Shown here: positions 4,526 through 32,000 of the stretch, piece by piece | Position numbering within the stretch: the first letter of the stretch is position 1 | Layout of the letters: each line of letters begins with the position of its first letter | DNA from: Kiritimatiella glycovorans | GTDB taxonomy: Bacteria > Verrucomicrobiota > Kiritimatiellia > Kiritimatiellales > Kiritimatiellaceae | Assembly (NCBI RefSeq): GCF_001017655.1 | Contig: NZ_CP010904.1 | Location: 1,830,001 to 1,862,000 of the forward strand | Reading direction: 5' to 3' | DNA: 32,000 nucleotides | Notes under the pieces: generated by a model | Told to the model about the DNA's origin: nothing | Database searches by the model: none | The model's input: the letters and a program-made list of their open reading frames with translations, nothing else | Translations under genes and position numbers: made by a program

Positions 4526-5845
4526 TCACTTCACCATCCACCTGACTTGTTCGAGATAGCGGCCAACGTGCGGGCGATTCTCGAAAGTCTGTGCCGCTTC
4601 GAGCAGGGATGCCGCACGGGCATACCGTTCGCGCGCGACCTCAATCTGCGCGTGGCGGATAAGGGCGTCTGCTTCGTAACCCTTGACGCGGGCGGCCCGC
4701 TCACATGTCATGGCGGCATCCTCCAGCCGCCCACTGTCCTGCTGAAGCTCGGCGAGCACAAGCATCGTGCGTCCATCAAGCGGGTCGAGCTTCAGAACGT
4801 CGTCACACAGCGCCATCGCGTCGTCGAAGCGTGCTTCCTGCTGTGCGAGTTCCGCCTTGAGACGCAGTAGCTTTATCTGCTGCGCTTCGTCAACGCTTTC
4901 GGTATCCGGTTCGAGGTTGCTCTCGGCTCGGGCAATCATGCTGGACGCTCGCTGCCCGTCGCCCACCATCAGGAAACCCTCGATGGCGCGGAGCATTCGC
5001 GCAATCGAGGGTGTATCGCCGGTGAATGCTGCCTCGTACGCGCGAAGCGCGTCTTCAGGTTGATCCTGGTTCAACAGGAGATCGCCCAGCGTCGCCAGCA
5101 TTTCCGCGTCTGCGCACCCGAGGCGTCGTGCCTTTTCAATGGTCCGCGTGGCCTTGGTATGCTTGCCCATCGACAGGTAGGCGTTTGCCCGGAGCGACCA
5201 AAGCTCCCGATTCGCCGGGTCGCGCTGAAGAATCTCACCGACAAGCGCCAGCCCTTCCGCATAGCGCTCCTGTTGCATGAGGGCCTTTGCCATCCCGAGC
5301 ATCGCATCGGCGTGCTTGGGACGCAGCAACAGCGATTGCCGGTAGGCCGATTCGGCTGACACCGGCGCGTTCTCCATCAGGAGCGCATGCCCGAGCAACA
5401 GCAGTATATCCGCATCGGCCTGGCCGTCCGAGACGAGTTGCTGATAGAGTGTGATGGCGTCTTCGGTCCGCTCCTGCATCAGGTAGACACGCCCAAGGTT
5501 CATGATCGCGCTGCGGAACTTCGGCAGCTTCTTGATTGCCGCCTTGTAGGCTGCCGCGGCTTCGTCAAGTCGTTCGTTCTGGAAATGAAGATTGCCTATC
5601 GCAAAATCCAACGCTGGGCTGGCTTCGGGTAGCTCTTTGGTCTGCAGCATCCGAATCGCCTGAGTGACATTGGTCCCAGCAACACGCATTGCTGTATTGA
5701 GCAAGGTGCTTTCTTCTCGCGTGACCGTCGGCTCGAACGGATCGTTCCCGTGCTGATACCCGTGACCATCACGGGCGACTGCCATCGTGCAACCGCTCAT
5801 CAGTATCAGCATGACACCAAACACGTATCTCTTCCTGGCTTTCAC
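4526..5845 (-). CDS. TPR-repeat (lipo)protein, TtpD-like last member of the TonB2-type module
   Basis: Track ORF 4526..5863. There are many TPR-like repeats (AxxxYxxAL.. patterns). I prefer the GTG at 5845, preceded by GAGAGGGA, which gives KARKRYVFGVMLILMSGC, a signal peptide with a lipobox-like LMSGC. The track start at 5863 is a TTG inside the heptamer repeat. Confidence 0.8.
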   Translation of the reverse strand: MKARKRYVFGVMLILMSGCTMAVARDGHGYQHGNDPFEPTVTREESTLLNTAMRVAGTNVTQAIRMLQTKELPEASPALDFAIGNLHFQNERLDEAAAAYKAAIKKLPKFRSAIMNLGRVYLMQERTEDAITLYQQLVSDGQADADILLLLGHALLMENAPVSAESAYRQSLLLRPKHADAMLGMAKALMQQERYAEGLALVGEILQRDPANRELWSLRANAYLSMGKHTKATRTIEKARRLGCADAEMLATLGDLLLNQDQPEDALRAYEAAFTGDTPSIARMLRAIEGFLMVGDGQRASSMIARAESNLEPDTESVDEAQQIKLLRLKAELAQQEARFDDAMALCDDVLKLDPLDGRTMLVLAELQQDSGRLEDAAMTCERAARVKGYEADALIRHAQIEVARERYARAASLLEAAQTFENRPHVGRYLEQVRWMVK

Positions 5846-5860
5846 ATATCCCTCTCTTTT

Positions 5861-5911
5861 CAATGACCAATGACCAATGACTGCCGCGTAGCGGCCAAAT
5901 GACCAATGACC
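5861..5911. repeat. Heptamer-hairpin element: (CAATGAC)x3 - GCCGC GTA GCGGC - CAAATGACCAATGACC
   Basis: Read directly. It fills the tonB-TPR intergenic gap. Confidence 0.9.
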
Positions 5912-5914
5912 TCT

Positions 5915-6586
5915 TTAGTCCAGTTTGAATGCGACCTTCTGCCGCACGCGCGTGGCCACCGCATCCCCGTCTTTGGTTCCGGGAGTGAAGCGCCAGCGTT
6001 CTATTGCGCGGACAGCCGCCGTCGCAAAGATGTCGCCCGGTCGCGATGAAACCACAACGATGTCCCGCGCCGTACCTTCCGCATTCACAATGAACTCGAC
6101 GACGACCTCCCCCTCGATCCGGCGCATCCTGGCCTGAGGCGGGTAGATGGGCTTGAGACGTGCAAGCGGTCGTGGCGGTTCGTCCAGATCGCTGATCTCG
6201 AACACAAGCTGCCTGACTTGCTCGCCCAGTGAATCAGCGGATATCCCGAAATCCACGCTGAAGTCCCCGCCAACATCGCCGATGGCCATGCCGAGGTCCA
6301 TGGCCGCCTGCATTGGGGCAAGCCGACGGCGGAGTTGTTGCATCTCCGGCTTTGGCGTTTGCGGCTTCGCCTCGGCGGCTCTCTTCTCGATACGTGGCGG
6401 CGGAGGCGGTGGTGGCGGCAGCTTGGCCGTGGTTACCGACCGGACGGAGGCCGCTTTCTCGGGAGGCGCGGAGAGCGTTTCAAGATACGGCAGAAGGAGA
6501 TACACACCGAGTGATACCGTGCCGGCCAGCACTACAGAGCGCCACGTCCAGCGAGGTGCGAAAAAACTGGAGAGGTCATTGGTCAT
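5915..6586 (-). CDS. tonB: TonB-family energy transducer
   Basis: It has an N-terminal TM helix (SVVLAGTVSLGVYLLLPYL), a Pro-rich spacer (KLPPPPPPPPRIEK...PQTPKPE), and a C-terminal TonB domain (YPPQARMRRIEGEVVVEFIVNAEGTARDIVVVSS...ATAAVRAIERWRFTPG). The ATG lies inside the heptamer repeat (ATGACCAATGACC). Confidence 0.85.
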   Translation of the reverse strand: MTNDLSSFFAPRWTWRSVVLAGTVSLGVYLLLPYLETLSAPPEKAASVRSVTTAKLPPPPPPPPRIEKRAAEAKPQTPKPEMQQLRRRLAPMQAAMDLGMAIGDVGGDFSVDFGISADSLGEQVRQLVFEISDLDEPPRPLARLKPIYPPQARMRRIEGEVVVEFIVNAEGTARDIVVVSSRPGDIFATAAVRAIERWRFTPGTKDGDAVATRVRQKVAFKLD

Positions 6587-7067
6587 TGGTCATTTGCGCC
6601 TTCGTCGCGTCATTTGTATCCCATTCGGGGCCGGATTCCTTTACGCGGACTGTTGTCGGACCGATCGACTTGATGTAGGCGTTGAGTCTGCGGCCGAGCG
6701 TATCCAAAGCGCTACTCAGTTCCTGGAATGCCTCCTTCTCGATCAGGGATCGGTGGTGAGCTTTGTTGAGCCATGTTTTCGCTTCAAAGAGGGAACCTCT
6801 ACTGTAGTAGCCGTATTGCTTGTTCTCCTTGTGATGGAAACGTCCGAAGCCTTCGCTCAGATTCGCTGCCATCGAGTCTGCCGCCCGAACCCACTGCTTC
6901 CCCACTGTGTCCTTTGCGAAGAAATCCCACTTCGCGACAATACCCCACACCACTTCCCCAATCCGCATCGCCTCTTGATACACTTCCAGTTCTTCCAATC
7001 GCATTTCCATATCCTCCCTCCAATGACCAATGACGCGGGCGGAGCCCGCAAATGACCAATGACTAAT
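6574..7067 (-). mobile_element. Four-helix-bundle gene cassette bounded by ~45-bp imperfect inverted arms (IVS-like; no transposase)
   Basis: The left arm, 6574-6616, is GGTCATTGGTCATTGGTCATTTGCGCCTTCGTCGCGTCATTTG. The reverse complement of 7021-7067 is ATTAGTCATTGGTCATTTGCGGGCTCCGCCCGCGTCATTGGTCATTG. A deleted derivative with the same arms is at 31391-31517. Confidence 0.45.
6576..7010 (-). CDS. Four-helix-bundle protein (23S rRNA intervening-sequence protein / Avd-like family)
   Basis: MEMRLEELEVYQEAMRIGEVVWGIVAKWDFFAKDTVGKQWVRAADSMAANLSEGFGRFHHKENKQYGYYSRGSLFEAKTWLNKA is the characteristic motif set of this family. GGAGGGAGG lies upstream, and an alternative ATG is at 7004. The C-terminal tail and TGA stop lie inside the heptamer repeat. 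The track start at 7085 reads through the repeat and is rejected. Confidence 0.85.
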   Translation of the reverse strand: MEMRLEELEVYQEAMRIGEVVWGIVAKWDFFAKDTVGKQWVRAADSMAANLSEGFGRFHHKENKQYGYYSRGSLFEAKTWLNKAHHRSLIEKEAFQELSSALDTLGRRLNAYIKSIGPTTVRVKESGPEWDTNDATKAQMTNDQ

Positions 7068-7470
7068 CCCGCCGCGAAGCGGCAATACTAACCTGCTTGG
7101 CTCCGGCCAGCTTGCATTCGTCGATCACGTCCACCAGCGGCGAGGTACGAGCGTCGCCATCGGCCAGAATAATCACAGGCGATTCCTTCTCTCGGAGTTG
7201 ACGTGCCACAACGCCGCGTACGCCGTTGACGCCGATCTCGCGTCCCCCGAACACGACCCTTCCGTCAGCCGTCAGCGCAATCATGATGCTGTGTTTGTCC
7301 ATGTCCTGAGCGCTCGCCGCCTGGGGCTTCTGGATCTCGACGCCGGTCTCCTCAACGAAAACCGTCGTCACGATGAAGAAGATCAGCAGGAGGAACACGC
7401 AGTCGATAAGGGGCGACATGTTGACCTCGACCCCACGTTCCGCCTGTTCGCTCAACGTGACGCGTTTCAT
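7063..7470 (-). CDS. exbD: ExbD/TolR-family biopolymer transport protein
   Basis: NMSPLIDCVFLLLIFFIVT TM helix followed by a periplasmic domain, 135 aa. Its start has a 4-nt overlap with the end of the preceding exbB-like gene. The TAG stop lies inside the repeat (GAT TAG TCATTGG). Confidence 0.9.
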   Translation of the reverse strand: MKRVTLSEQAERGVEVNMSPLIDCVFLLLIFFIVTTVFVEETGVEIQKPQAASAQDMDKHSIMIALTADGRVVFGGREIGVNGVRGVVARQLREKESPVIILADGDARTSPLVDVIDECKLAGAKQVSIAASRRD

Positions 7471-8105
7471 CGTTCCGTACCTTCTGTCTCATATTCCAGA
7501 GTCTGTAACGCATGGCTTCGACATTCCGCGATGACCACATGGGCGTTCCGCAGCATGCGCTGCAAGCGGGCCAGTCCGAATACGCCGGGCAAGGCGACCA
7601 CAAGCCCGAACTGGGTCGTGATCAAGGCCTGGCTGATACCGGCAGCCACGCGTGTCCCCGTGTTGCCGCCGATAGCCGCAACCGCATCGAAGGTTTGAAT
7701 CATGCCCATGACCGTTCCCAGCAGTCCCAGCAATGGCGCGATGGCAGTCAAAGCCGCCAGCACAAGAACATCCCGCCGCATAAGCTCCATGCATTCGTTC
7801 TCGCGTGCCGCGAATGCTTCTCGGGGCGCTGCCCCGCCAAGCACGTCGGTCACCGCCGCCGAAACCATGGTCGCGATTCCGCCGGGGATTGCGCGCAACC
7901 CCTCGACAAGAGGGCGCGCGGGCCCGCCCAACGCGCCACTGTGTAGCGCGTTCCTCACGACCTTGCCATCACGAATCGTTCGGGCCAGCAACTCGCGCGA
8001 ACGCAGGAACAGCCCCCAGATTCCGAGGCACACGATCCCGATAGGCAGCAGCAACGGCCCGCCCGCTCCCCAGTACGCCACCGTCTGTTCGAGCCATTCG
8101 TTCAT
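7467..8105 (-). CDS. exbB: MotA/TolQ/ExbB proton-channel protein
   Basis: LTAIAPLLGLLGTVMGMIQTF...ISQALITTQFGLVVALP signature; 212 aa. It has ATGA-type overlaps with both neighbours. Confidence 0.9.
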   Translation of the reverse strand: MNEWLEQTVAYWGAGGPLLLPIGIVCLGIWGLFLRSRELLARTIRDGKVVRNALHSGALGGPARPLVEGLRAIPGGIATMVSAAVTDVLGGAAPREAFAARENECMELMRRDVLVLAALTAIAPLLGLLGTVMGMIQTFDAVAAIGGNTGTRVAAGISQALITTQFGLVVALPGVFGLARLQRMLRNAHVVIAECRSHALQTLEYETEGTER

Positions 8106-9502: not shown

Positions 9503-9572
9503 GGCCAATGACCTGCCTTCGCCAAGGCTGCGGCGGAGCCGCCAAATGACCAATGCCCAATGCCCAATGACT
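9503..9572. repeat. Heptamer-hairpin element with two hairpins (GCCTT CGCC AAGGC and GCGGC GGA GCCGC) plus AAATGACCAATGCCCAATGCCCAATGAC
   Basis: Read directly. It lies between the DUF3450-like gene and the TtpC-like gene. Confidence 0.9.
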
Positions 9573-9576
9573 CCTC

Positions 9577-10356
9577 TCATGGCTCCACCTCCTCGGCGAC
9601 CTGCATGGGAAGCACTACGAGCTGCGCGGTCTCCTGCCGGTTCAGAGTGTCAATCGCACGTCGAACGGACTGCCCGTCTCCAGTGGATGGCGTCCATGTC
9701 CAGCCCGCATCGGCGGGTACTCCCACCGCAGCCCAATCGTTCCCCGGGGAAACCGCGAACGCTCGTGCCAGCCCGACATAGAGCACGTCCACCCGTCGAC
9801 GTTCGCCCTCGACATCCAGTGTCTCGCGTGTCGCATGGAATTGGTTCTGGAGTGTCTCGATCTGCGTGTAGAGCGCCGCCACGGTCTGAGCTCGCTTCGT
9901 CAGCGGCAGTCTCTCCGCTTCCGTCTGCGTCGAAGGCAGTGCGTCGAACCCGGTGACCGACGCCATCAATCCCGACGGTATCCGTGTGCGCCATCGGCGC
10001 AAATCGGCCTCGGCGCGATCCAATACAGCGCGAAGCTTCAGAAGCTCGGCGTCCATGTGCTCTTTGCGCGCCAACGCTGCCGCACGCTTCCTCTCGACCG
10101 TTGAGGCGAACGTTTCGCCGTCGTCGATCTCCTCCTTGAGCGTCTTGGATTCCTGTTCGAGGAGTGCGATCTCTTCTTCCCACTGCTCCCGCCGTGCATC
10201 CCAATCGCGTTTCTCTTCTGCAATGGTTGTGCGTAGTGCCATCCAGCGGCCGACCAGCGCATCGAGCTGGTTCAGCGAGCCATCTCCTCCATCTGCCCGC
10301 GCCAGCCACGGAAGCAATATCATCCCCGCCAGCATTACTCGCCTTGCTCGTGTCAT
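9577..10356 (-). CDS. DUF3450-like periplasmic coiled-coil protein (TtpB-like first gene of the TonB2-type module)
   Basis: Signal peptide MTRARRVMLAGMILLPWLARA, then a long coiled coil, then a C-terminal ...VDVLYVGLARAFAVSPGNDWAAVGVP...WTW region typical of the family. It sits directly upstream of the TtpC-like gene. An alternative start is Met8 at 10335. The first ATG belongs to the repeat. Confidence 0.7.
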   Translation of the reverse strand: MTRARRVMLAGMILLPWLARADGGDGSLNQLDALVGRWMALRTTIAEEKRDWDARREQWEEEIALLEQESKTLKEEIDDGETFASTVERKRAAALARKEHMDAELLKLRAVLDRAEADLRRWRTRIPSGLMASVTGFDALPSTQTEAERLPLTKRAQTVAALYTQIETLQNQFHATRETLDVEGERRRVDVLYVGLARAFAVSPGNDWAAVGVPADAGWTWTPSTGDGQSVRRAIDTLNRQETAQLVVLPMQVAEEVEP

Positions 10357-10497
10357 TGGTCATGTCCTCGCTTTGCTCGTCATTGGTCATTTGCGGGCTT
10401 TGCCCGCGTCATTTGCTCACTTTGTTCGCGTCATCGGTCATCAGTCATTAGTCATCGGTTGTCTCCTCCATTGACCAATGACCAATGACTAATGACC
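10352..10497. repeat. Composite heptamer-hairpin array (GGTCATT-orientation units, then GGAGGAGAC, then AATGACC-orientation units)
   Basis: It contains GCGGGC TTT GCCCGC and the degenerate spacers CTCGCTTTGCTCG and CTCACTTTGTTCG. It is homologous in unit order to the array at 15213-15343. Confidence 0.9.
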
Positions 10498-10983
10498 ACT
10501 TCTGTAGTCGCGCACGCCGCGCCTCCGTGCCGTGTCGTCCCCGACCTCCTCCTGCCAGCCTGAGCGGACGTTTTCTCGAAGATCGTAGCGGGCAATGAAG
10601 GGTTTGATATCCAGCAGAGGGGTGCCGTCCAGAACGTCCAGATCCTCCACGTGCAGCGTGGTGCCTTCTATCGACAGCAACCGCACGACGCTGAAACCGA
10701 TATGGTTGGGACGGAACGGGGCGCGCGTGGCAAACACGCCCCGTTCCTCATCCTGAAGGTACGGGCGTACTCGGAGCTTCACCTGTTCTGCGCGGTGGAA
10801 GCGATACAGCAAGTAGACATGGGAGAACCCATCAAGGTCGAGCAGACCATCCGCGTACGCATCGTCCACCGTGACCGTGCCGCGAATCCCGCTGGCAAAC
10901 ACGGGCTGGATAGGCGTCTCTTTCGGGTTCTTGTGAGGTGAATGGATTTGTCCGATAGGCTCGATGGCAAACATGTCGTTCAT
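10489..10983 (-). CDS. trmO: tRNA (m6t6A37) methyltransferase TrmO/TsaA (YaeB family)
   Basis: IEPIGQIHSP...DLDGFSHVYLLYRFH...RAPFRPNHIGFSVVRLLSIEGTTLHVEDLDVLDGTPLLDIKP is the classic TsaA-like beta-barrel motif set. It has an ATGA overlap with the upstream SPFH gene. The last codons and the TAG come from the repeat (AGT GGT CAT TAG). Confidence 0.9.
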   Translation of the reverse strand: MNDMFAIEPIGQIHSPHKNPKETPIQPVFASGIRGTVTVDDAYADGLLDLDGFSHVYLLYRFHRAEQVKLRVRPYLQDEERGVFATRAPFRPNHIGFSVVRLLSIEGTTLHVEDLDVLDGTPLLDIKPFIARYDLRENVRSGWQEEVGDDTARRRGVRDYRSGH

Positions 10984-15212: not shown

Positions 15213-15343
15213 ACTCGCTTTGCTCGTGTCATTGGTCATTGGTCATGTACTCGCTTTGCTCGTGTCATTTACTCACTTCGTTCGGGTCATTGGTCATTGG
15301 TTGCATCACGCGCCGCAGGCGCCAATGACTAATGACCACTGAC
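15213..15343. repeat. Composite heptamer-hairpin array
   Basis: ACTCGCTTTGCTCGTGTCATTGGTCATTGGTCAT occurs twice, followed by TCATTTACTCACTTCGTTCGGGTCATTGGTCATTGG, the hairpin GCGCC GCA GGCGC, and CAATGACTAATGACCACTGAC. It overlaps the ATPase stop. Confidence 0.9.
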
Positions 15344-17251
15344 CTCCAAATCCTCCAGATCCTCGCCTTCCCGAACGAGGCGAGCGGAGTTGACGATCAC
15401 GATGAACGTGCTTGCCGTGTGCAGCAGGACCGCGACGACGGGATGGATGATACCTGTTGCGCTCAAGGCGAGCATGCCGACCACGTACACGCTCGAGAAC
15501 ACTAGGTTCTGCCGCACCACGGAGGTCAGGCGGCGTGCCAGGTGGAAAAGGAAGGGAATACGATTCAGTTCGTTGTTCAGCAGAGCCATACGTGCCGCAT
15601 GGATCGCGGCTTCGCTACCAGCCGCACCCATGGCAATCGAAAGATCGGCTTCGGCGAGCGCCGGCGCATCGTTGATCCCGTCTCCGACGGCGGCAACAAG
15701 CCCCTCGTCGGCACGAAGACGCTTCACCGCATCCATCTTCTGTCCTGGGAGCAGTTCGGCGACCACATCCGTGAACGTCAGATGCCTGGCGACCGCCTCC
15801 GCCACAGGCCGGCGGTCTCCCGTCAACATGACACAATGCGACACGCCTTCATCCCTCAACTGGCCGACGACCTCGGAGGCACCGGGCCGCAACTCGTCTT
15901 CCAGGACTACCCGTCCGAGCAGGTTCCCGTTTTTTGCGATGAGAACCACGCTGCCCTGACGGTCGTCCTCGTCGGATTCAGATGCCATCTTGACGCCTGC
16001 ATCGATCAAGAACTCGCGGCGACCAGCCAACACCGTGTTACCACTCAAGACGCCACGGACGCCCCTGCCGGGCTCTTCCTCACAGTTCCGGATGTCGGCT
16101 GGGTGTATCTCTCGCTCTCGCGCGGCGCGCACAATGGCCTGTGCAGCGGGGTGGTTCGAATGCGCTTCGATGCCTGCCGCGAAACGCAGTAGCTCGTCCT
16201 CGGTAACTCCGTCGGCAGGTTGCAGGCCCACGACATGCAGACGCCCGCGAGTAATGGTGCCCGTCTTATCGAACACCACAGCCTTGATCCTCCCGGCGAT
16301 TTCGAGATCGGCAATGTTCTTGATCAGAATGCCCAGGCGCGCGGCGGCGCTGAGCGCCGCAACGGCCGCGGTCGGGCCGGAGAGGAGGATCGCGCAGGGG
16401 CAGGCCACAACCAGCATGGCAACCGTCCGATCCATGTCGCGTGTGAAGAAGAGCACGATGGAAGCCAGAATGAGCACCAGCGGCGTGTACCAGCCGGCGT
16501 AGCGGTCGACCAGACGCATGACAGGAGTGCGGGTGGCTTCGGCCTCCAGGATCAGCGAGCGCACTTGCTCGAGGGTTGTGTCCTGCCCCGCCCGTCCGAT
16601 CTCAACGTCCAAGACGCCCGTTACGTTCACCGTGCCCGCAAAGATGGAATCGCCTTCTCCCTTCTCAACGGGAAGGGACTCGCCGGTGATCGTCGCTTCG
16701 TTGAGCGTGCTTCGTCCTGCCACGATGATTCCGTCTCCCGGCACCAATTCCCCAGGCCGAACGCGGATACGCTCTCCGACGCTGAGCGCAGCCGCTTCCA
16801 CCGCTTCCTCTCCCGATGGCGTGATGCGGCGCGCCGATGCGGGGCGGAGGCGAATGAGCGCCTCAATGCTCCTTCGCGCGCCGGATGCCGAGCGGTCTTC
16901 GATCATGTTCGAGATCTGCACGAAGAACGCCACAGCGGCGGCAGTGAGATGCTCCCCGGCAGCAAACGCCGCACCGATTCCCAGCGCCGCCATGACGTTC
17001 AGATTGGGTCGGCTCAGAGCCAGGTCGCGCATGGCCGTTGCCACTAAGGGAAGACCCAGTACGACGGCGGCCGCTATTGCCACGATGTCCGCGTGGAACG
17101 GGTGCGCGAAGAGCCGCGACGCAATCAGAGCCGCCAGCAGCAGCATGCCGCCAAAGAGAAGAACGACGGTCCGCAGCGTAGCTGCAGGCCGATGAGCATC
17201 GCTGCTACCATTGGGGCTGGCAGATGGATTCTCTGAGTAGTCAGTTGTCAT
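15329..17251 (-). CDS. Heavy-metal-translocating P1B-type ATPase (CPC motif; no N-terminal HMA/CxxC domain)
   Basis: Motifs seen: TGESLPV (A-domain), VVACPCAILLSGP (TM CPC), DKTGTIT (phosphorylation site), HSNHPAAQAI (HP), MLTGD, GDGINDAPAL. Four predicted TM helices precede the A-domain. There is no GMxCxxC metal-binding domain. Confidence 0.95.
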   Translation of the reverse strand: MTTDYSENPSASPNGSSDAHRPAATLRTVVLLFGGMLLLAALIASRLFAHPFHADIVAIAAAVVLGLPLVATAMRDLALSRPNLNVMAALGIGAAFAAGEHLTAAAVAFFVQISNMIEDRSASGARRSIEALIRLRPASARRITPSGEEAVEAAALSVGERIRVRPGELVPGDGIIVAGRSTLNEATITGESLPVEKGEGDSIFAGTVNVTGVLDVEIGRAGQDTTLEQVRSLILEAEATRTPVMRLVDRYAGWYTPLVLILASIVLFFTRDMDRTVAMLVVACPCAILLSGPTAAVAALSAAARLGILIKNIADLEIAGRIKAVVFDKTGTITRGRLHVVGLQPADGVTEDELLRFAAGIEAHSNHPAAQAIVRAAREREIHPADIRNCEEEPGRGVRGVLSGNTVLAGRREFLIDAGVKMASESDEDDRQGSVVLIAKNGNLLGRVVLEDELRPGASEVVGQLRDEGVSHCVMLTGDRRPVAEAVARHLTFTDVVAELLPGQKMDAVKRLRADEGLVAAVGDGINDAPALAEADLSIAMGAAGSEAAIHAARMALLNNELNRIPFLFHLARRLTSVVRQNLVFSSVYVVGMLALSATGIIHPVVAVLLHTASTFIVIVNSARLVREGEDLEDLEVSGH

Positions 17252-17284
17252 TGGTCATGCACTCGCTCCGCTCTCGTCACTTGA
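17241..17284. repeat. Degenerate heptamer element (TCAGTTGTCATTGGTCATGCACTCGCTCCGCTCTCGTCACTTG)
   Basis: It resembles the CTCGCTTTGCTCG-type units at 10352-10385 and 15213-15275. It contains the ATPase ATG. Confidence 0.7.
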
Positions 17285-19759: not shown

Positions 19760-19994
19760 ATTGGTCATTGGTCATTTGGCCGCTGCGCGGCCGTCATTGG
19801 TGATTGGTCATCGGTCATTGGCCATTGGTCATTTGCGCCTACGGCGCGTCAATAGTCATTGGTCAATAGTCATTGGTCATTTGCGCCTGCGGCGCGTCAT
19901 TGGTCATTGGTTCTGGGTCATTGCCGCGAATGACTGATGACTGCGGGCGAAGCCCGCAAAATGACCAATGACTAATGACGCGGCCGAAGGCCGC
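19760..19994. repeat. 235-bp array of five heptamer-hairpin units (three in one orientation, then two inverted)
   Basis: Hairpins are GGCCGC TGC GCGGCC, GCGCC TAC GGCGC, GCGCC TGC GGCGC, GCGGGC GAA GCCCGC and GCGGCC GAA GGCCGC. They are separated by runs of GTCATTG / AATGAC heptamers. The array fills the whole gap between the small Cys/His protein gene and the receptor gene. Confidence 0.9.
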
Positions 19995-19995
19995 C

Positions 19996-20391
19996 TCAGG
20001 CGGGAGGTCCGCAGGAGAAGGGCAGGAGGCGCGGGGTCTTGAAATCCGGCTGACTTGGTACAGCCGGCAGGGCGATCTCGACAGGTGCGAACTGCGGCAA
20101 GGCGATTGCCACAACCGCCGTATCGACAGGAGTCTTCGCGAGCTGACAGATCGAGCAGGTTGACGGGTCGTGCGGCTTCCTTTGCGGGTGAGAGTCGCGC
20201 GAACGCTCGGGCGTCTCGTGGCCGTTCGCGTGCTCCCGCGAGTGGTCGTGCGAGCAACAAGAATGACGGACACCTTTCGCAATGTCGTCGTCGGCACAGG
20301 CCAGCTCCAGCCTGTGCATGGCGGGAACAAGCAGTGTCCCCACCACGAACAGGAGCAAGCCACCGATTGCCAGTTGTCTTCTCTCTGTCAT
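19996..20391 (-). CDS. Small Cys/His-rich exported or membrane-anchored protein (131 aa; possibly DUF2946-like)
   Basis: N-terminal hydrophobic helix (LAIGGLLLFVVGTLLVPA). Motifs HSCCSHDHSREHANGHE and STCSICQLAK. Codon third positions are strongly G/C. It is the first gene of the receptor/ATPase train and a paralogue of 23008..23400. Confidence 0.55.
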   Translation of the reverse strand: MTERRQLAIGGLLLFVVGTLLVPAMHRLELACADDDIAKGVRHSCCSHDHSREHANGHETPERSRDSHPQRKPHDPSTCSICQLAKTPVDTAVVAIALPQFAPVEIALPAVPSQPDFKTPRLLPFSCGPPA

Positions 20392-20497: not shown

Positions 20498-21691
20498 TGT
20501 AATGTGAAATGCCGCAGGTATAGGAGAGAGCGTTCCATGCCGTGGTTCGCTATCCTTTGTGGTCTTACAACAGGACAACAGAGGAAGGAGACGGCATGGA
20601 ACAGAATCAGAATAGCAGGAAGGGCAAGCACTTGACGAGGGTGGAGCGCATGGTGATTGAGCGGATGTCCCGTGGGGGGATCCCCCCACGGGACATCGCG
20701 GCCGCCTTGGAGCGTCACCCGCGTACGATCCAGCGTGAGCTCAAGCGCGGGACGGTGACCCACCGGGACTCGGAGTGGCGGGAATACCGGACCTACAGCA
20801 GCGATCGCGGCCAGGACCTCCATGATTACCACGCCACCGCAAGGGGGCCCGGTCTGAGGCTGGGCCGCAACTATGCGCTGGCCGAATTCATCCGTTGCCG
20901 CATTGTGGAACATAAGGAATCGCCCGATGTAGTCGCCTTTCGGATGCGTCAGGCCGGTCTGGAGGAGGTGGTGTGCACCAAGACGATCTATAACTACATC
21001 GATAAAGGCGTCATTTTCGGGCTCAGCAACGAGTCACTGTGGGAGAAGCGTAAGCGAGCCAAGCGGCGCAAACGCGGCGCTCGGCGGTTGGCGAAGCGGA
21101 TTTCCAAAGGCAAAAGCATCGACCAGCGTCCCGAAGGAGCCGAGACGCGCGAGGAGTTCGGACACTGGGAGATGGACCTGGTGACCGGCCCCACGCGCGG
21201 GTCCAATGCCGCCCTATTGACCCTGGTGGAACGCAGACATCGGATCACGATCATTCGCAAGCTGCCTGATAAGAGCCAAGCCAGCGTGCTCAAAGTTCTC
21301 AGAGGGCTCGAGCGTGAACATGGCTCCCGCTGCTTCCGTCAGATCTTCAAGACCATCACGGTCGACAACGGCAGCGAGTTCCTGGACTTCGAAGCCTTAG
21401 AAGCCTCTTCCTTCTCGAAGCAACAGCGAACCCAGATCTTCTACGCCCACCCATACTCATCCTGGGAACGCGGATCGAACGAGAACGGCAACAGGATGAT
21501 CAGACGGTTCGTGGCCAAGGGCCGGGATATCGCGCGCTTTACCAAGCAGAAAATCCGCGACATCGAGCTATGGATCAATAACTACCCGCGCCGGATCCTC
21601 GACTTCATGACCCCTCACGAACTCTTCACGAACGAACTCAAAACGATCTCATAAATGAAACAAGACCACTACATGCGGCATTTGGTTTACA
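20498..21691 (+). mobile_element. IS30-family insertion sequence
   Basis: A single DDE transposase ORF. Imperfect terminal inverted repeats are TGTAATGTGAAATGCCGCAGGTA (20498-20520) and the reverse complement of 21669-21691, TGTAAACCAAATGCCGCATGTAG. The boundaries are approximate. Confidence 0.75.
20596..21654 (+). CDS. IS30-family transposase
   Basis: An N-terminal HTH region (LTRVERMVIERMSRGG, RTIQRELKR). DDE-domain motifs GHWEMDLV, TVDNGSEF and PYSSWERGSNENGNRMIRRF. GGAAGGAG lies 5 nt upstream of the ATG at 20596. Confidence 0.95.
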   Translation: MEQNQNSRKGKHLTRVERMVIERMSRGGIPPRDIAAALERHPRTIQRELKRGTVTHRDSEWREYRTYSSDRGQDLHDYHATARGPGLRLGRNYALAEFIRCRIVEHKESPDVVAFRMRQAGLEEVVCTKTIYNYIDKGVIFGLSNESLWEKRKRAKRRKRGARRLAKRISKGKSIDQRPEGAETREEFGHWEMDLVTGPTRGSNAALLTLVERRHRITIIRKLPDKSQASVLKVLRGLEREHGSRCFRQIFKTITVDNGSEFLDFEALEASSFSKQQRTQIFYAHPYSSWERGSNENGNRMIRRFVAKGRDIARFTKQKIRDIELWINNYPRRILDFMTPHELFTNELKTIS

Positions 21692-21728: not shown

Positions 21729-21772
21729 ACCAATGACCAATGACGCGGCGAAGCCGCACATGGCTCATGACC
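21729..21772. repeat. Heptamer-hairpin element (CACCAATGACCAATGAC GCGGC GAA GCCGC ACATGGCTCATGACC)
   Basis: Read directly. Confidence 0.85.
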
Positions 21773-21786
21773 GAGCGATTTGGGTA

Positions 21787-21814
21787 TTGACAAGGTCATA
21801 TATATCTGTATTCT
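21787..21814 (+). promoter_or_regulatory. Sigma-70-like promoter candidate TTGACA-16 nt-TATTCT, 7 nt before the ATG of the DUF4143 ATPase (near-leaderless)
   Basis: A consensus -35 hexamer within a locally AT-rich patch of a GC-rich genome. There is no Shine-Dalgarno sequence between it and the ATG at 21822. Confidence 0.3.
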
Positions 21815-21821
21815 GACCATT

Positions 21822-22970
21822 ATGTACACCAGATTACTGAAGCAACCATGGGCCACTGGACAGAGTTTCTTCCTGTTTGGCCCGCGAGGTACAGGAAAGA
21901 CGACCTGGCTGCATCGGGGTCTCGATGCCGAAGGCAGTCTCTACCTCGACCTGCTGAACGACGACCTGTATACCGAGCTGCTGGCTCGGCCGCACCGGCT
22001 GGACACGTTGGTTGGCGATCGGCGCTGGGACTGGGTCGTGCTGGACGAAATCCAGCGCGTTCCCGCGCTGCTGAATGAAGTGCACCGGCTCATCGAGAGC
22101 CGGGGACTCCGTTTCGCCATGACGGGTTCCAGCGCCCGAAGCCTGAGACGCAGGGGCACGAATCTACTGGCCGGGCGCGCTCTTACGTTTCACATGCACC
22201 CGCTGGCCGCGGCGGAACAGGGCGAGGACTTCGACCTCGCCCGCGCCATTCGGTTCGGACAGCTTCCGGGCGCACTGAAGAGTGCGGCGCCGGATGCACA
22301 TCTTGCGTCCTATTTCCGCACCTACCTCCGCGAAGAAGTCCAGGAGGAAGGTCTGACGCGTCGACTGGGGAACTTTGCCCGTTTTCTTGAAACGGCGAGT
22401 TTCTCTCAGGGCTCCCCGCTCAACGTCTCCGCCGTGGCCCGGGAAGCGGCCCTTGACAGGAAGGTTGTGAACAACTACTTCGGCATCCTGGAAGACTTGC
22501 TCATCGGTCATCGGCTGCCGGCATTCACGAAGCGCGCGCGACGCAGGCTGACGTCGCATCCCAAGTTCTACTTCTTCGATGCGGGCGTGTATCGCTCGAT
22601 ACGCCCCATGGGGCCTCTGGACAGTCCCGAAGAAGCGGAAGGCGCCTGCCTGGAGACGCTGTGCTATCAGGAGCTGCGAGGCGTCAACGACGCGCTCGGC
22701 TTGGGATATGACCTGTACTATTGGCGCACAAGCGACGGCACGGAGGTCGACTTCGTGTTGTACGGCAAGGCCGGCATTCTTGCCTTCGAAGTCAAACGAG
22801 CCGCCCGCTACACCGCGAAGGACTTGAGCGGCTTGCGCAGTTTCAAACGCGACTACCCCTCCGCGCGCTGCTTCCTGCTGTACGGCGGGCATGACCGCCG
22901 CCAGGAGGGGGATATCCAGGTCTGTCCTCTCGATCAGACATTGCCCGCGCTTCCCGCCATACTTGCTTGA
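21822..22970 (+). CDS. AAA+ ATPase with a DUF4143 C-terminal domain (AAA_14 family)
   Basis: FLFGPRGTGKTT (Walker A) and WVVLDEIQRVP (Walker B). Later motifs FARFLETASFSQGSPLNVSAVARE and YYWRTSDGTEVDFVL are typical of DUF4143 proteins. The start is chosen at MYTRLL. Confidence 0.9.
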   Translation: MYTRLLKQPWATGQSFFLFGPRGTGKTTWLHRGLDAEGSLYLDLLNDDLYTELLARPHRLDTLVGDRRWDWVVLDEIQRVPALLNEVHRLIESRGLRFAMTGSSARSLRRRGTNLLAGRALTFHMHPLAAAEQGEDFDLARAIRFGQLPGALKSAAPDAHLASYFRTYLREEVQEEGLTRRLGNFARFLETASFSQGSPLNVSAVAREAALDRKVVNNYFGILEDLLIGHRLPAFTKRARRRLTSHPKFYFFDAGVYRSIRPMGPLDSPEEAEGACLETLCYQELRGVNDALGLGYDLYYWRTSDGTEVDFVLYGKAGILAFEVKRAARYTAKDLSGLRSFKRDYPSARCFLLYGGHDRRQEGDIQVCPLDQTLPALPAILA

Positions 22971-27697: not shown

Positions 27698-27711
27698 GAA
27701 GGGGCATGGGT

Positions 27712-27733
27712 CCATGGTCATTGGTGATTGGTG
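27712..27733. repeat. Short heptamer run (CCATGGTCATTGGTGATTGGTG)
   Basis: Read directly. Confidence 0.7.
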
Positions 27734-27769: not shown

Positions 27770-28357
27770 ATGAAGAAGAGATGGCTTGGATTGATGGTAG
27801 TGGCTGCGATGGTCGTCGGCGTGGGGTGCGGGAAGAAGGCGGAGCAGGGCTCGGTCGAGCCGGTAGCCGTGCCCAAGGCGTTTGTCAGTGAAGAGCCGGC
27901 CGGAGAGCCGACACCGATCCCTGAAGCACGCAAGCTGCCACCGGGGACGGATGTGCTTCTCAAAGGGCTCGTCATGGGTGTGCGCAGTCCGTTTGTCGAG
28001 GGCCGCGCCCTGTTCATTCTCGGCGACGAAGCCACGATCACGCCGTGCAACGCCAAAGACGATGACCATTGCTCCATGCCCTGGGACGCCTGCTGCGATC
28101 CGCTCGAGGTGCGTGCCGCCGGCACGGCGGCGATACAGGTGCTGGACGATACGGGCGAGGTTTTGGAGCAGGGCCTCAAGGGCGTGAACGGCCTCAAGGA
28201 ACTGAGTCGCGTGACCGTCGCCGGCGCCGTGGCGCCACACTCGACGACGAACGCATTCGTCGTCAACGCCGCGTCGTTGTACGTGGAGCCCGAAGCAAGC
28301 AACCAACCAGAAGCCAAAGACGCCCACGCAACCTGCCCGAGCTGCCCCGCAAAGTGA
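27770..28357 (+). CDS. Cys-rich putative lipoprotein embedded in the efflux operon (195 aa)
   Basis: MKKRWLGLMVVAAMVVGVGCG is a signal peptide with a lipobox-like Cys. GGAGGA precedes the ATG. There is a Cys/His/Asp cluster (TPCNAKDDDHCSMPWDACCDP) and a C-terminal HATCPSCP. I recognise no family. Confidence 0.65.
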   Translation: MKKRWLGLMVVAAMVVGVGCGKKAEQGSVEPVAVPKAFVSEEPAGEPTPIPEARKLPPGTDVLLKGLVMGVRSPFVEGRALFILGDEATITPCNAKDDDHCSMPWDACCDPLEVRAAGTAAIQVLDDTGEVLEQGLKGVNGLKELSRVTVAGAVAPHSTTNAFVVNAASLYVEPEASNQPEAKDAHATCPSCPAK

Positions 28358-28367
28358 TGCAGGCCAC

Positions 28368-28431
28368 AAATGACCAATGACCAATGACTAATGACCAGTG
28401 ACCGCCGCGCAGCGGCCAAATGACCAATGAC
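28368..28431. repeat. Heptamer-hairpin element (AAATGACCAATGACCAATGACTAATGACCAGTGAC CGCCGC GCA GCGGC CAAATGACCAATGAC)
   Basis: Read directly. Its last ATG is the start codon of the TolC-like gene. Confidence 0.9.
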
Positions 28432-30041: not shown

Positions 30042-31337
30042 TCATGATCTCTGCGCCTCTTCACAACCTGACAGCAGGTAACGCCAGGCGGGAATGGAGT
30101 TGGGTTCGGCCTCGGACAAACCCGGCGCATACTCGTGGTAAACCAGGTGTCCCCGTGCCTCGGGCCAAAGGGTCCTTCCGAACTCCATGACGTTCTTCTC
30201 GCGCTCGAATGCGGCATCGTCGGCCAGGCTCCAGCACGTGTTCGCAAACCAGGCGCCCTCGCCGTCGCACAGGTCGACTTCATGAGCATTCGAGTAGTAG
30301 TAGAGGTCCCGACGGCGTCGGCGAGCCTCCAGAAAGACGGCCGTCTCCAGCTTGTGGCCGACGTCGCGCTGGGGGTATGCCTTGAAAGCCGCGACGAGAC
30401 CGGGGTCGATCACATGCAACTTCTTGGGATTGTGCTCCTGCTTGCGCAACGACTCGTCGCGTTTCGGCACCATGAAGACCAGAGACGCATCCTTCAGGCA
30501 GCCGAGGTACTCGTGCAGCGTGTTCTTCGACACCGCCAACCCCAGCGATTTGAAGTCACGGTGTAGCTTGCTGACGTTGATCAGCGATGCCGTGTTCCGA
30601 AAGCAGTACCTTAACAGGGTTCGCATGACCTTCTCGTTCCGTACTCCATAACGCTCGACCACGTCCCTGAACAACATGAGCGAGGCGTACTCCTCCAGGA
30701 TCAAGGGGCGCAGCGGCGCCTCGGCGAGCACGATCTCGGGGAAGCCGCCCCATGTCAGATACTCGACAAGCTCCGCGCGCGCGCGGCTCTCGTCGCGAGC
30801 GCTGAACGAGGATATCTCCACCTCTCGAAACGAGAGAAACTCCCTGAAGCTCAGGGGAAACACCTCCAACGTGATGCTGCGTCCCCGCATTGCGGCAGAC
30901 AGGTCGCGGGCCAGAAGCCGGGAGGACGAACCGGTAACAAAGATCGATATATCCTCGGTATCTTTAAGCCGCCTGACCCAACGCTCCCAGCCGGGTACGT
31001 CCTGCACCTCGTCCAGAAAGAGGTAGGTCTTGCCGGAGGCCGTATCGGGGTACAACTCGTTCAGGCTGCGAAGCACAAGATCCAGTTCTTCGGCGCGCAC
31101 GGGGTGCAGGCGATCATCCTCGAAGTTCAAGTACACGAGCTGTCGCCGGTCCACGCCTTGCCGGACGAGCCGGTGCATGGCGTCGAACAGCAGGAACGTC
31201 TTTCCGGAGCGGCGCGGCCCCGAAAGCCCCACCACTTTGCCGGTGTCCGCCGGGAGAGATCTATCGCGAGGACGACAAACCGGCAATTCGCCTTCGATGA
31301 ACTGGCGCAACACATACTTCAGATTGTAACTGTTCAT
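30042..31337 (-). CDS. AAA+ ATPase with a DUF4143 domain (AAA_14 family), second intact copy
   Basis: VVGLSGPRRSGKTF (Walker A), YLFLDEVQDVPGW (Walker B), a DUF4143-like middle region, and a C-terminal YYYSNAHEVDL restriction-endonuclease-like motif. Confidence 0.9.
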   Translation of the reverse strand: MNSYNLKYVLRQFIEGELPVCRPRDRSLPADTGKVVGLSGPRRSGKTFLLFDAMHRLVRQGVDRRQLVYLNFEDDRLHPVRAEELDLVLRSLNELYPDTASGKTYLFLDEVQDVPGWERWVRRLKDTEDISIFVTGSSSRLLARDLSAAMRGRSITLEVFPLSFREFLSFREVEISSFSARDESRARAELVEYLTWGGFPEIVLAEAPLRPLILEEYASLMLFRDVVERYGVRNEKVMRTLLRYCFRNTASLINVSKLHRDFKSLGLAVSKNTLHEYLGCLKDASLVFMVPKRDESLRKQEHNPKKLHVIDPGLVAAFKAYPQRDVGHKLETAVFLEARRRRRDLYYYSNAHEVDLCDGEGAWFANTCWSLADDAAFEREKNVMEFGRTLWPEARGHLVYHEYAPGLSEAEPNSIPAWRYLLSGCEEAQRS

Positions 31338-31390
31338 AGCGACAATATAGATACTCCCGTCCCTTTATGCAAGGACAATCTCGCATCTCG

Positions 31391-31517
31391 TTGGCCATTT
31401 GCGGCTTCGCCGCGTCATCGGTCATGGGTATCCCATTCCGGGCCGTTTCCTTTGTGGGCCTCTCACTCATTCAATCGCACTCCCATATCCTCCCACCATT
31501 GGCCAATGACCAATGAC
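31391..31517 (-). mobile_element. Gene-less ghost of the four-helix-bundle cassette (both arms retained, interior of about 370 nt deleted)
   Basis: In minus sense, GTCATTGGTCATTGGCCAATGGTGGGAGGATATGGGAGTGCGATTGAATGAG aligns to the cassette 5' end, GTCATTGGTCATTGGAGGGAGGATATGGAAATGCGATTGGAAGAA. AAAGGAAACGGCCCGGAATGGGATACCCATGACCGATGACGCGGCGAAGCCGCAAATGG aligns to the cassette 3' end, AAAGGAATCCGGCCCCGAATGGGATACAAATGACGCGACGAAGGCGCAAATGA. Confidence 0.7.
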
Positions 31518-31612
31518 GGCCGCGCAGCCTGCCCGCATTGCCCGCCCGCAACGCTGGCGCGTAGCGACTGCGGGCAGGCTCCGCAAAGCGATGTAGGCGG
31601 GCGGCCAAATGA

Positions 31613-32000
31613 CTACTGATTACACTCCCGGCAAACACCCAGCACGGTGATCCGGTGCGCTCGCTGCTTGAAACCCGCCTTGCGGCAGGCGATGGCGATG
31701 CGCTGGTGGATCTTGGGGTCGAGGAACTCGATGAACTTCCCGCACTGCTCACAGATCAGGTGCTCATGGTCTTCGAATCCCAGGGTCCGGTCGTAGTGCA
31801 CCTCGCGACCGGCTTCGCGGATCTCGCGCAAGAGACCGGCACGAACCATCAGGCCCAAGGTCTGGTACACGGTGCCACGGCTCACACGGGCCGGGCCGGC
31901 ATTGCTCAGATCCATGGCAAGCTCCTCGGCCGTGAAATGGCCGTCGCCTCTGAACACGCGATCGCAAACAATCCGGCGTGGCTGAGTGACCCGCAGACCC
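31613..32000 (-). CDS. Fur-family metalloregulator (Fur/Zur/PerR-type); the 5' end runs off the right edge
   Basis: Winged-helix part FTAEELAMDLS...VSRGTVYQTLGLMVRAGLL, the metal-site motif DHEHLICEQCGKFIEF, and a second CxxC (CRECN). The frame stays open to position 32000 (GLRVTQPRRIVCDRVF upstream of the track Met). The TAG stop is followed by TCATTTGGCCGC from a repeat. Confidence 0.85.
   Translation of the reverse strand, partial: GLRVTQPRRIVCDRVFRGDGHFTAEELAMDLSNAGPARVSRGTVYQTLGLMVRAGLLREIREAGREVHYDRTLGFEDHEHLICEQCGKFIEFLDPKIHQRIAIACRKAGFKQRAHRITVLGVCRECNQ

Follow-up and report, generated by a model that had tools for sequence, protein, structure and literature searches.

The 32,000-nucleotide stretch of the Kiritimatiella glycovorans genome analyzed here (assembly GCF_001017655.1, contig NZ_CP010904.1, positions 1,830,001–1,862,000; hereafter the window, numbered from its first letter) contains, between exbD and tonB of a TonB2-type operon, a gene for a PF05635-family four-helix-bundle protein. 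The gene was inserted into the operon, and we consider it probable that it is one copy of a single-gene cassette which is widespread, has no promoter and is enclosed by inverted arrays of a short core sequence with GC hairpins. The cassette lies in the orientation of the operon, and a scan of positions 5800–7600 detected no promoter- or terminator-like site of its own.

The cassette and its host genes are encoded on the minus strand. The gene at 6576–7010 is preceded by a 5′ (left) arm at 7021–7067, which on the messenger RNA (mRNA) strand reads as two GTCATT heptamers, the hairpin GCGGGC-TCC-GCCCGC and two further heptamers, and is followed by a 3′ (right) arm at 6574–6616, made up of one AATGAC core, a degenerate hairpin and three AATGACC units. 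The sequence of 6574–6616 is GGTCATTGGTCATTGGTCATTTGCGCCTTCGTCGCGTCATTTG and the reverse complement of 7021–7067 is ATTAGTCATTGGTCATTTGCGGGCTCCGCCCGCGTCATTGGTCATTG. The repeat unit is the 7-base GGTCATT, whose conserved core, on the coding strand, is GTCATT on the upstream side of the gene and AATGAC on the downstream side, here in 7-nt units; the inverted-repeat match between the two arms amounts to 21 nt at 95% complementarity, or 32 nt at 72%. A first-pass annotation, made from the letters of the window, had given the arm sequences, their inverted layout, the positions of the TAG, TGA and ATG codons discussed below and an 11-nt gene overlap, all of which proved exact to the base. Its description of ~45-bp inverted arms has to be revised, as the arms are arrays of a 6-nt core and not a 45-bp terminal repeat.

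Both arms are joined to the neighboring genes. The exbD stop codon TAG (7063–7065) lies within the left arm, while the cassette TGA (6576–6578) and the tonB ATG (6584–6586) both lie within the right arm, giving the 11-nt overlap. The host exbD (7063–7470, minus strand) ends in ...AASRRD*, with the stop given by the arm, and its relatives end in ...AANRK* or ...AAERK*. The host tonB (5915–6586, minus strand) takes its N-terminal MTND from the arm, and its homology to insertion-less relatives restarts at D-L-x-x-F-F-A-P-R-W-T-W. Since the arms supply the exbD stop and the tonB start, the operon is still translatable.

The cassette open reading frame (ORF) comprises 144 codons plus a stop. Its product matched PF05635 with an E-value of 1.1e-23 and 84 bits (curated cutoff 33.8) and TIGR02436 with 8e-23 and 80.7 bits (cutoff 24), so that the profile search upheld the earlier assignment to the family of proteins encoded in intervening sequences (IVS) of ribosomal RNA (rRNA). 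PF05635 was the sole Pfam match and no HUH/Y1 (IS200/IS605-like) transposase was detected in the gene, in agreement with the statement that the cassette carries no transposase. Translation probably begins at the second ATG, at 7004 (MRLEELEVY...); this codon is favored by a Shine-Dalgarno sequence, GGAGGGAGG (7013–7021, minus strand), that sits 8 nt before it, and corresponds to the start used by most homologues. The Shine-Dalgarno sequence is joined to the last heptamer of the left arm, and arm-plus-Shine-Dalgarno junctions resembling that of the window were seen in loci L016 and L007. At the other end of the gene, the last five codons (MTNDQ) and the stop are heptamers read through in translation. 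The dipeptide ND occurs among the last 12 residues in 57 of 120 close homologues, which fits a translated AATGAC array, and 15 of these 57 end in ...TNDQ.

The AlphaFold2 model of the protein displayed four helices, at residues 5–25, 30–56, 65–86 and 92–115. A Foldseek search with this model returned 2GSC (Xcc0516; E 5e-5, TM-score 0.86) and also 2RLD (BT_0352); these two pentamers, together with Avd as bound to RNA in 8UB7, were the top structural matches. The modeled fold is that of the up-down four-helix bundle of Xcc0516, BT_0352 and Avd, and the fold family shared with Avd that had been proposed from the sequence is thus borne out. Although only the monomer was modeled, the protein probably forms a pentameric ring, by analogy with 2GSC, 2RLD and 4DWL. 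The family possesses a conserved R-x3-S-x3-N-x2-E motif (PMC3936711), which corresponds to R42, S46, N50 and E53 of the cassette protein; S46, N50 and E53 were invariant in an alignment of 39 sequences. The dN/dS ratio (non-synonymous to synonymous substitution) of 0.06–0.15 indicates that the protein is kept by purifying selection. Its nearest named relatives belong to bacteria of the Planctomycetes-Verrucomicrobia-Chlamydiae group. A phage, plasmid or defense origin was considered and rejected: among 2.9 million viral contigs there was one relative, a weak match, the single plasmid match was distant and arm-less, and no PADLOC or PHROG model (known anti-phage defense and phage families) matched.

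Comparison with the nearest orthologous TonB2 operons, which came from metagenomes, indicates that the cassette is an insertion at the exbD/tonB junction. The operon of the window has the TonB2-type order DUF3450(ttpB)-ttpC-exbB-exbD-tonB-TPR(ttpD), and the same gene order is found in L003, L096, L100 and L102. The first-pass annotation had proposed an inserted cassette that should be matched by empty sites in relatives, and such sites were found. In L096, whose ExbD is 93% identical, the exbD-tonB gap measures 11 nt and 9 kb of sequence contain zero arms. L097 (TtpC 97%, ExbB 90%, ExbD 92% and TonB 85% identical) lacks the cassette gene and has five AATGACC units at exbD/tonB, with a tonB N-terminus, MTNDLSSFF, that is the same as in the window; it also has a gene-less arm pair at exbB/exbD, where the window shows a plain 4-nt ATGA overlap. 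In L003 a copy with 79% identity occupies another junction of the orthologous operon, ttpC/exbB, and exbD and tonB of this locus overlap by 4 nt. At both filled junctions, in the window and in L003, the left arm gives the upstream stop (TAG in ..TTAGTCATT) and the last AATGAC gives the downstream ATG. An 89%-identical copy was located in a dtxR/feoA operon, with an 11-nt overlap as in the window, and further close copies lie after aspS and between large TPR genes. By these comparisons the cassette family changes place between relatives, leaving gene-less arm pairs and solo arrays behind. A class I methyltransferase gene at exbB/exbD of L003 (7110–7688 of that locus), which the window lacks, could likewise be an insertion at an operon junction.

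Several close copies reside in iron-related operons (TonB2 here and in L003, dtxR/feoA, and next to exbD), as would be expected of a resident accessory gene of the TonB2/iron-uptake system with ordinary intergenic repeats around it. We regard this explanation as highly improbable: the gene is missing from the nearest orthologous operons (L096 and L097), occupies a different junction in L003, is found in many unrelated operons, and showed no Pfam link to the TonB machinery. The recurrence of iron-related hosts among the closest copies (window, L003 and L177–L182) could be a target preference or an effect of sampling one lineage.

To what extent the arms accompany the gene could be judged from its relatives in other phyla. 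A profile of 39 subfamily members retrieved more than 579 relatives in species-representative genomes, and the counts given here refer to the best 80 of these (L016–L095), which share 53–92% identity, represent more than 12 phyla and have a locus GC content of 29–63%. The phyla include Verrucomicrobiota, Lentisphaerae, Kiritimatiellia, Fibrobacterota, Bacteroidota, Ignavibacteria, Scalindua, KSB1, Desulfobacterota, Nitrospinia, Cloacimonadota, Calditrichota, Aminicenantes and others. At least two GTCATT cores were present within 150 nt upstream of the gene in 57 of 76 loci (reversed orientation, 9), at least two AATGAC cores within 200 nt downstream in 63 of 73 (reversed, 5), and both arms in the standard orientation in 49 of 70. 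The density of cores was 20 per kb in the flanks vs 1.2 per kb elsewhere. Across this set the conserved arm unit is a hexamer, repeated at a spacing of 7, 8, 10 or 11 nt or separated by a small GC hairpin, and arm size peaks at four cores. In 70 of 74 loci the upstream neighbor has the same direction as the cassette gene, and in 52 of 64 both neighbors do; the host operons are coherent and mutually unrelated, among them gvp (gas-vesicle), citEF (citrate lyase), ABC transporter, batA, polysaccharide synthesis, rnfC/rnfD and other operons. The question raised earlier, whether other copies of the gene carry the same arms, can hence be answered in the affirmative, at other loci and in other phyla, and the distribution indicates that the arms belong to the cassette gene.

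Two features of individual loci were recorded alongside these counts. Reversed units (AATGAC-type upstream, GTCATT-type downstream) or arm pairs on both sides were seen in L019, L025, L026, L027, L033, L041 and L049, which suggests tandem or nested elements. L010 and L013, which represent one site in different samples, differ in the length of their downstream arm, with 4 and 6 exact cores, respectively, and in the distance from the cassette to the start of the following gene (16 vs 54 nt); array copy number therefore varies within a population.

Distant subfamilies of the protein retain the same cassette layout with a different core. In L187 (39% identity) GGAATT-type heptamers lie upstream and AATTCC heptamers downstream, in L188 GGTATT upstream and AATACC downstream, in L189 GGTTGATT upstream and AATCAACC downstream, and in L190 G(T/G)GA(C/T)TG upstream (GTGACTG) and CAGTCAC-type heptamers downstream; the Coxiella rRNA IVS has three copies of GACAGAT before its ORF. 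This covariation of core and protein subfamily provides the strongest argument at hand that the protein may recognize its own arms, and lends indirect support to the action of the protein on its arms that the first-pass annotation had put forward as pure inference. The four-helix-bundle ORF of L188 (1201–1599), which has a histidine kinase on one side and a sigma-54 response regulator on the other, loses its similarity to the family beyond approximately residue 85 and extends into an array of its own with a 21-nt period; it is probably a decaying copy.

Heptamer arrays have been reported from other bacteria. In Xanthomonas campestris, 186 arrays of the GGGAATC type, with a mode of four units, were cataloged (Rehm et al., 2015; PMC4692102); ~90% of them lie in intergenic regions, for the most part with ORFs of like orientation on both sides, they include 70 convergent inverted pairs, and most are transcribed, with a function not known to the authors (PMC4692102). 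Array #15 of the supplementary table lies 6 nt from bccP (XCC0517) and overlaps the start codon of XCC0516 (PMC4692102). XCC0516 is the PF05635 protein of PDB 2GSC, so that a GGGAATC array lies over the start codon of a family member, a link that was not made by Rehm et al. The same authors described arrays of GGGGA(C/T)T in Anabaena (PMC4692102). Like the arms studied here, these arrays consist of tandem 7-nt units with a mode of four, lie between co-oriented ORFs and near an ORF end, often form convergent inverted pairs, differ in length between relatives and are transcribed. Unlike in the present case, in which they are the arms of a gene cassette, such arrays were seen in the papers as simple-sequence repeats or G-quadruplex formers with no link to a gene, and GGTCATT is incapable of forming a G-quadruplex.

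Arrays of the arm type also occur in the window away from the cassette. The double heptamer, allowing at most 2 mismatches, was found 45 times vs 0.17 expected, with the matches grouped at ~12 sites; ~10 arm arrays lie at gene junctions besides the cassette arms. The earlier description of the arms as brackets of the cassette holds insofar as they flank the gene, but they are not unique to it in the window, where ~10 more solo or paired arrays and a deleted second copy are present. Inspection against the ORF map showed that at every site the polarity of the array follows host transcription: a stop codon precedes the GTCATT-type units and a start codon directly follows the AATGAC-type units. 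Six host ATG codons (6586, 10356, 15239, 17251, 19768 and 28427) fall in a final core.

The window also contains an internally deleted second cassette copy at 31388–31517 (minus strand), in which both arms remain, as do ~15 nt from the beginning and ~26 nt from the end of the ORF. This copy aligns to 6583–6642 (the right arm and the last 26 nt of the ORF) and to 6996–7034 (the first 15 nt of the ORF, the Shine-Dalgarno sequence and the inner left arm), and has lost ~353 nt of the interior. Deletion within full copies is therefore one way in which gene-less pairs can arise. This derivation bears on the proposal that the arrays are an independent family of the repetitive extragenic palindromic (REP) or miniature inverted-repeat transposable element (MITE) kind, moved in trans by an unlinked transposase as with REPINs and RAYTs (REP-associated tyrosine transposases), with the gene as no more than a common passenger or regulator. 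In the window, gene-bearing copies are indeed outnumbered by solo arrays and gene-less pairs, the 186 arrays and 70 inverted pairs of Xanthomonas present a similar picture, and L097 has its gene-less pair at a new junction. Nevertheless, we hold this proposal to be improbable, because in most other genomes the arrays are restricted to the flanks of a PF05635 gene, the core varies with the protein subfamily, gene-less pairs are derivable from full copies, and no candidate enzyme was found, the IS30-like element of the window having unrelated terminal repeats.

The remaining arrays were mapped as follows. Within the TonB2-type operon, whose other members, all on the minus strand, are the DUF3450 gene (9577–10356), a ttpC-like MotA/ExbB gene (8102 to ~9505), exbB (7467–8105) and the TPR gene (4526–5863), a solo left-type array of two heptamers, a GC hairpin and three heptamers lies at the tonB/TPR junction (5862–5910, minus), and a solo left-type array with two GC hairpins at the DUF3450/ttpC junction (9507–9571, minus); the claim that the operon is otherwise tightly overlapped consequently fails at these two junctions. 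At the trmO/DUF3450 junction (10352–10496, minus) is a gene-less pair composed of a left arm, an SD-like GGAGGAG and a right arm, with the trmO stop within the left arm and the DUF3450 ATG (10356) within the last core. A gene-less left-plus-right pair at 15228–15336 (minus) lies at a P-type ATPase/Band7 junction and holds the host stop and start codons in its arms, and a short right-type array at 17246–17259 (minus) holds an ATPase start codon (17251). The largest array, 19764–19979 (minus), has ~4 left-type and then ~11 right-type cores with five GC hairpins and ends in the ATG (19768) of a TonB-dependent receptor gene. On the plus strand, a right-type array with a hairpin (21729–21771) directly precedes a DUF4143 ATPase gene (21780), a left-type array (27709–27729) follows the stop of a MacB-like permease gene, and a right-type array with a hairpin (28369–28431) holds the ATG (28427) of an outer-membrane efflux protein (OEP) gene.

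Several neighbors of these arrays deserve mention. An IS30-like element (20507–21683; HTH_38 and rve transposase at 20542–21654), with its own 14-nt terminal inverted repeats, lies with the largest heptamer array on one side and a further arm array on the other, which gives the impression of an insertion into an arm-rich region; as a candidate mobilizer it was rejected, its terminal repeats (20507–20520 and 21670–21683) being unrelated to the arms. A lipoprotein gene (27770–28357, plus strand) with no Pfam match, within an HlyD-ABC-MacB-MacB-OEP efflux operon, has the left-type array 27709–27729 and the right-type array 28369–28431 on either side and resembles a cassette with other cargo. Two paralogous AAA_14/DUF4143 ATPase genes (21780–22970, plus, and 30042–31337, minus) each lie immediately downstream of an arm array, and a Fur-like regulator gene (31545–32000, minus), identified by eye from its translation, is cut by the end of the window. 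A second intact family gene, suggested by a weak phmmer match (E 0.011) at 19866–20387, was dismissed for want of Pfam support.

The internal structure of the arms was analyzed in the same set of loci. Hairpins in the spacers between cores were enriched, with 25 distinct stems of at least 5 bp vs 1.4 expected, and the stem sequences vary. Triloops on the AATGAC strand were G-N-A in 58 of 79 cases, with a single T-N-C; spacer-hairpin mismatches informative for G-U vs A-C were few. The spacer hairpins and the G-N-A triloops point to a single-stranded form of the arms. Spacings between cores of 9, 12 and 13 nt were almost absent in both arms, those of 7, 8, 10, 11 and 14 nt being common: the counts were 2 for 9 nt and 10 for 12 nt, compared with 132, 31, 136 and 76 for 7, 8, 10 and 11 nt.

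This pattern partly fits a frame-independent translational relay, in which AAUGAC arrays stop ribosomes in any frame and restart them through AUGA overlaps, making an insertion non-polar, so that the arms are tolerance devices and not binding sites. In addition to the near-absence of spacings of 9 and 12 nt, 49 of 57 right arrays have a stop in each of the three frames and 40 of 57 an ATG in every frame, six host genes of the window begin in a final core, and the empty junctions are ATGA overlaps. However, left arms avoid the same spacings and rarely have stops in all frames (12 of 47), few downstream genes elsewhere start in a core (10 of 62), and the relay leaves the hairpins, the subfamily-specific cores and the constant cargo gene unexplained; we therefore consider it rather unlikely. 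The reading-frame explanation covers spacings of 9 and 12 nt, not that of 13 nt.

The pairing of the two arms was evaluated with regard to an IVS-like RNA element, in which the arms would pair in the polycistronic mRNA and be cut by RNase III, the cassette RNA would be excised, and the exbD-tonB transcript would be segmented or regulated. RNase III excises rRNA IVSs carrying the same ORF family at their terminal stem, and cassette polarity follows host transcription. In silico, the minimum-energy fold of 6555–7085 (minus strand) closes with a left-arm/right-arm stem of ~17–21 bp that encloses the ORF, and the gene-less pair at 10352–10496 (10350–10498 folded) forms a 25-bp hairpin with a z-score of -7.2. 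The z-score of the whole cassette region is only -1.6, though, and arm complementarity over 57 loci was better in the sense strand in 28 and in the antisense strand in 29, with 143 vs 144 G-U pairs; given the lack of strand asymmetry, nothing points to selection on an mRNA stem. The RNase III-type stem of the first-pass annotation therefore survives as a pairing in the minimum-energy fold and finds no backing from the comparison of sense and antisense. Duplex energies were modestly better for a locus's own arms than for foreign arms, a difference confounded by shared composition; unequal spacing in many arms breaks continuous duplexes, and a cut at the stem here would take away the tonB start region. 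A search of Rfam yielded zero family matches, and no rRNA match, in the operon region or in 20 related loci. Taken together, we think the RNA element rather unlikely.

The cassette that we favor would be selfish, riding host operons, with arms that keep the host genes translatable. The arms would serve as putative binding arrays for the cassette's own ring-shaped protein, which we predict to bind them, probably as single strands of RNA or DNA from which the hairpins loop out, and such binding might serve the expression control or the spread of the element. A ring protein on a repeat array has an analogy in TRAP, which wraps GAG repeats.

A number of observations weigh against the cassette so described. 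(i) No recombinase is encoded in the cassette, and the filled-vs-empty comparisons revealed no target-site duplication, only replaced stop/start regions. (ii) No insertion event between near-identical sequences was seen among the compared loci, and the closest copies at different sites have a synonymous divergence (dS) of ~0.7. (iii) Approximately 15–25% of the subfamily loci are without one arm or have reversed arms, and two relatives at ~40% identity have no arrays. (iv) The donation of start and stop codons was rejected as a general rule and appears lineage-specific, since the start codon of the downstream gene falls within a core in only 10 of 62 cases. (v) Solo arrays could spread alone or via an unlinked enzyme.

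Among known systems, the rRNA IVSs of Leptospira, Coxiella and bacteria of the candidate phyla radiation, which carry the S23p/23S_rRNA_IVP ORF, come closest to the cassette. They share the protein family and an ORF within pairable inverted termini, the tandem heptamers of Coxiella lie beside its ORF, no recombinase is encoded, and ORF-less derivatives exist. They differ in that (i) the cassette is hosted by a protein-coding operon (exbD/tonB), not by a 23S or 16S rRNA helix; (ii) each of its arms is built from repeats of a 6-nt core and from hairpins, as opposed to the simple 28-bp stem of an IVS; (iii) strong purifying selection acts on its protein, while decay has been reported for the Coxiella ORF; and (iv) its arms donate stop and start codons.

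The REP/REPIN-RAYT system likewise has a single gene between inverted modules of repeat plus hairpin and many dispersed, intergenic, gene-less hairpin doublets. Unlike RAYT, the cassette gene encodes a four-helix bundle without HUH/Y1 motifs; its module repeats in tandem instead of forming a single palindrome, and the cassette is embedded in operons with fixed polarity. Avd of the diversity-generating retroelements (DGRs) has the same fold and pentameric relatives but ~10% sequence identity to the cassette protein, and no reverse transcriptase or template/variable repeat pair was present among the annotated and scanned ORFs of the window. Judging from the titles of PDB 8UB7 and 4DWL, Avd binds structured RNA in a DGR ribonucleoprotein. 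Insertion-sequence and MITE transposons differ from the cassette, which has no transposase and, in the filled-vs-empty comparisons, no target duplication. The Correia elements of Neisseria and the enterobacterial repetitive intergenic consensus (ERIC) are small inverted-repeat MITEs that are co-transcribed in operons and can form RNase III-type stems; they differ from the cassette in lacking a dedicated cargo gene and in possessing defined terminal repeats as well as target duplications.

Short tandemly repeated repetitive (STRR) heptamers of cyanobacteria were reportedly described by Mazel et al. in 1990. We take STRR2, presumably TTGGTCA, to be a rotation of GGTCATT, and STRR1, presumably CCCCAGT, to be a rotation of the L190 core. 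A literature search, largely outside subscription journals, found nothing with the heptamer array strings, a link between PF05635 and flanking repeats or the cassette architecture. More tentatively, and at less than even confidence, we propose that PF05635 proteins may be sequence-specific, ring-shaped binders of tandem repeats which, with their inverted arms, would constitute a new class of recombinase-less selfish elements colonizing operon junctions and rRNA genes, with heptamer arrays such as STRR and the GGGAATC arrays of Xanthomonas as their decay products. PF05635 has also been listed among domains "associated" with CRISPR (clustered regularly interspaced short palindromic repeat) arrays and cas operons (PMC10910872; PMC3936711), and a family that rides operons and carries regularly spaced repeats could yield such associations without a functional link.

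The armed cassette ties the PF05635 family to the unexplained heptamer repeats of some bacterial genomes. It thereby addresses the role of the rRNA IVS ORF and the manner in which such elements spread, a loose end since 1993, as well as the source of the dispersed heptamer arrays seen in cyanobacteria (1990) and Xanthomonas (2015). Host start and stop codons that lie within the arrays are easily mis-annotated. The occurrence of PF05635 genes inside cas and other operons fits an operon hitch-hiker, and guilt-by-association screens will catch such a PF05635 hitch-hiker.

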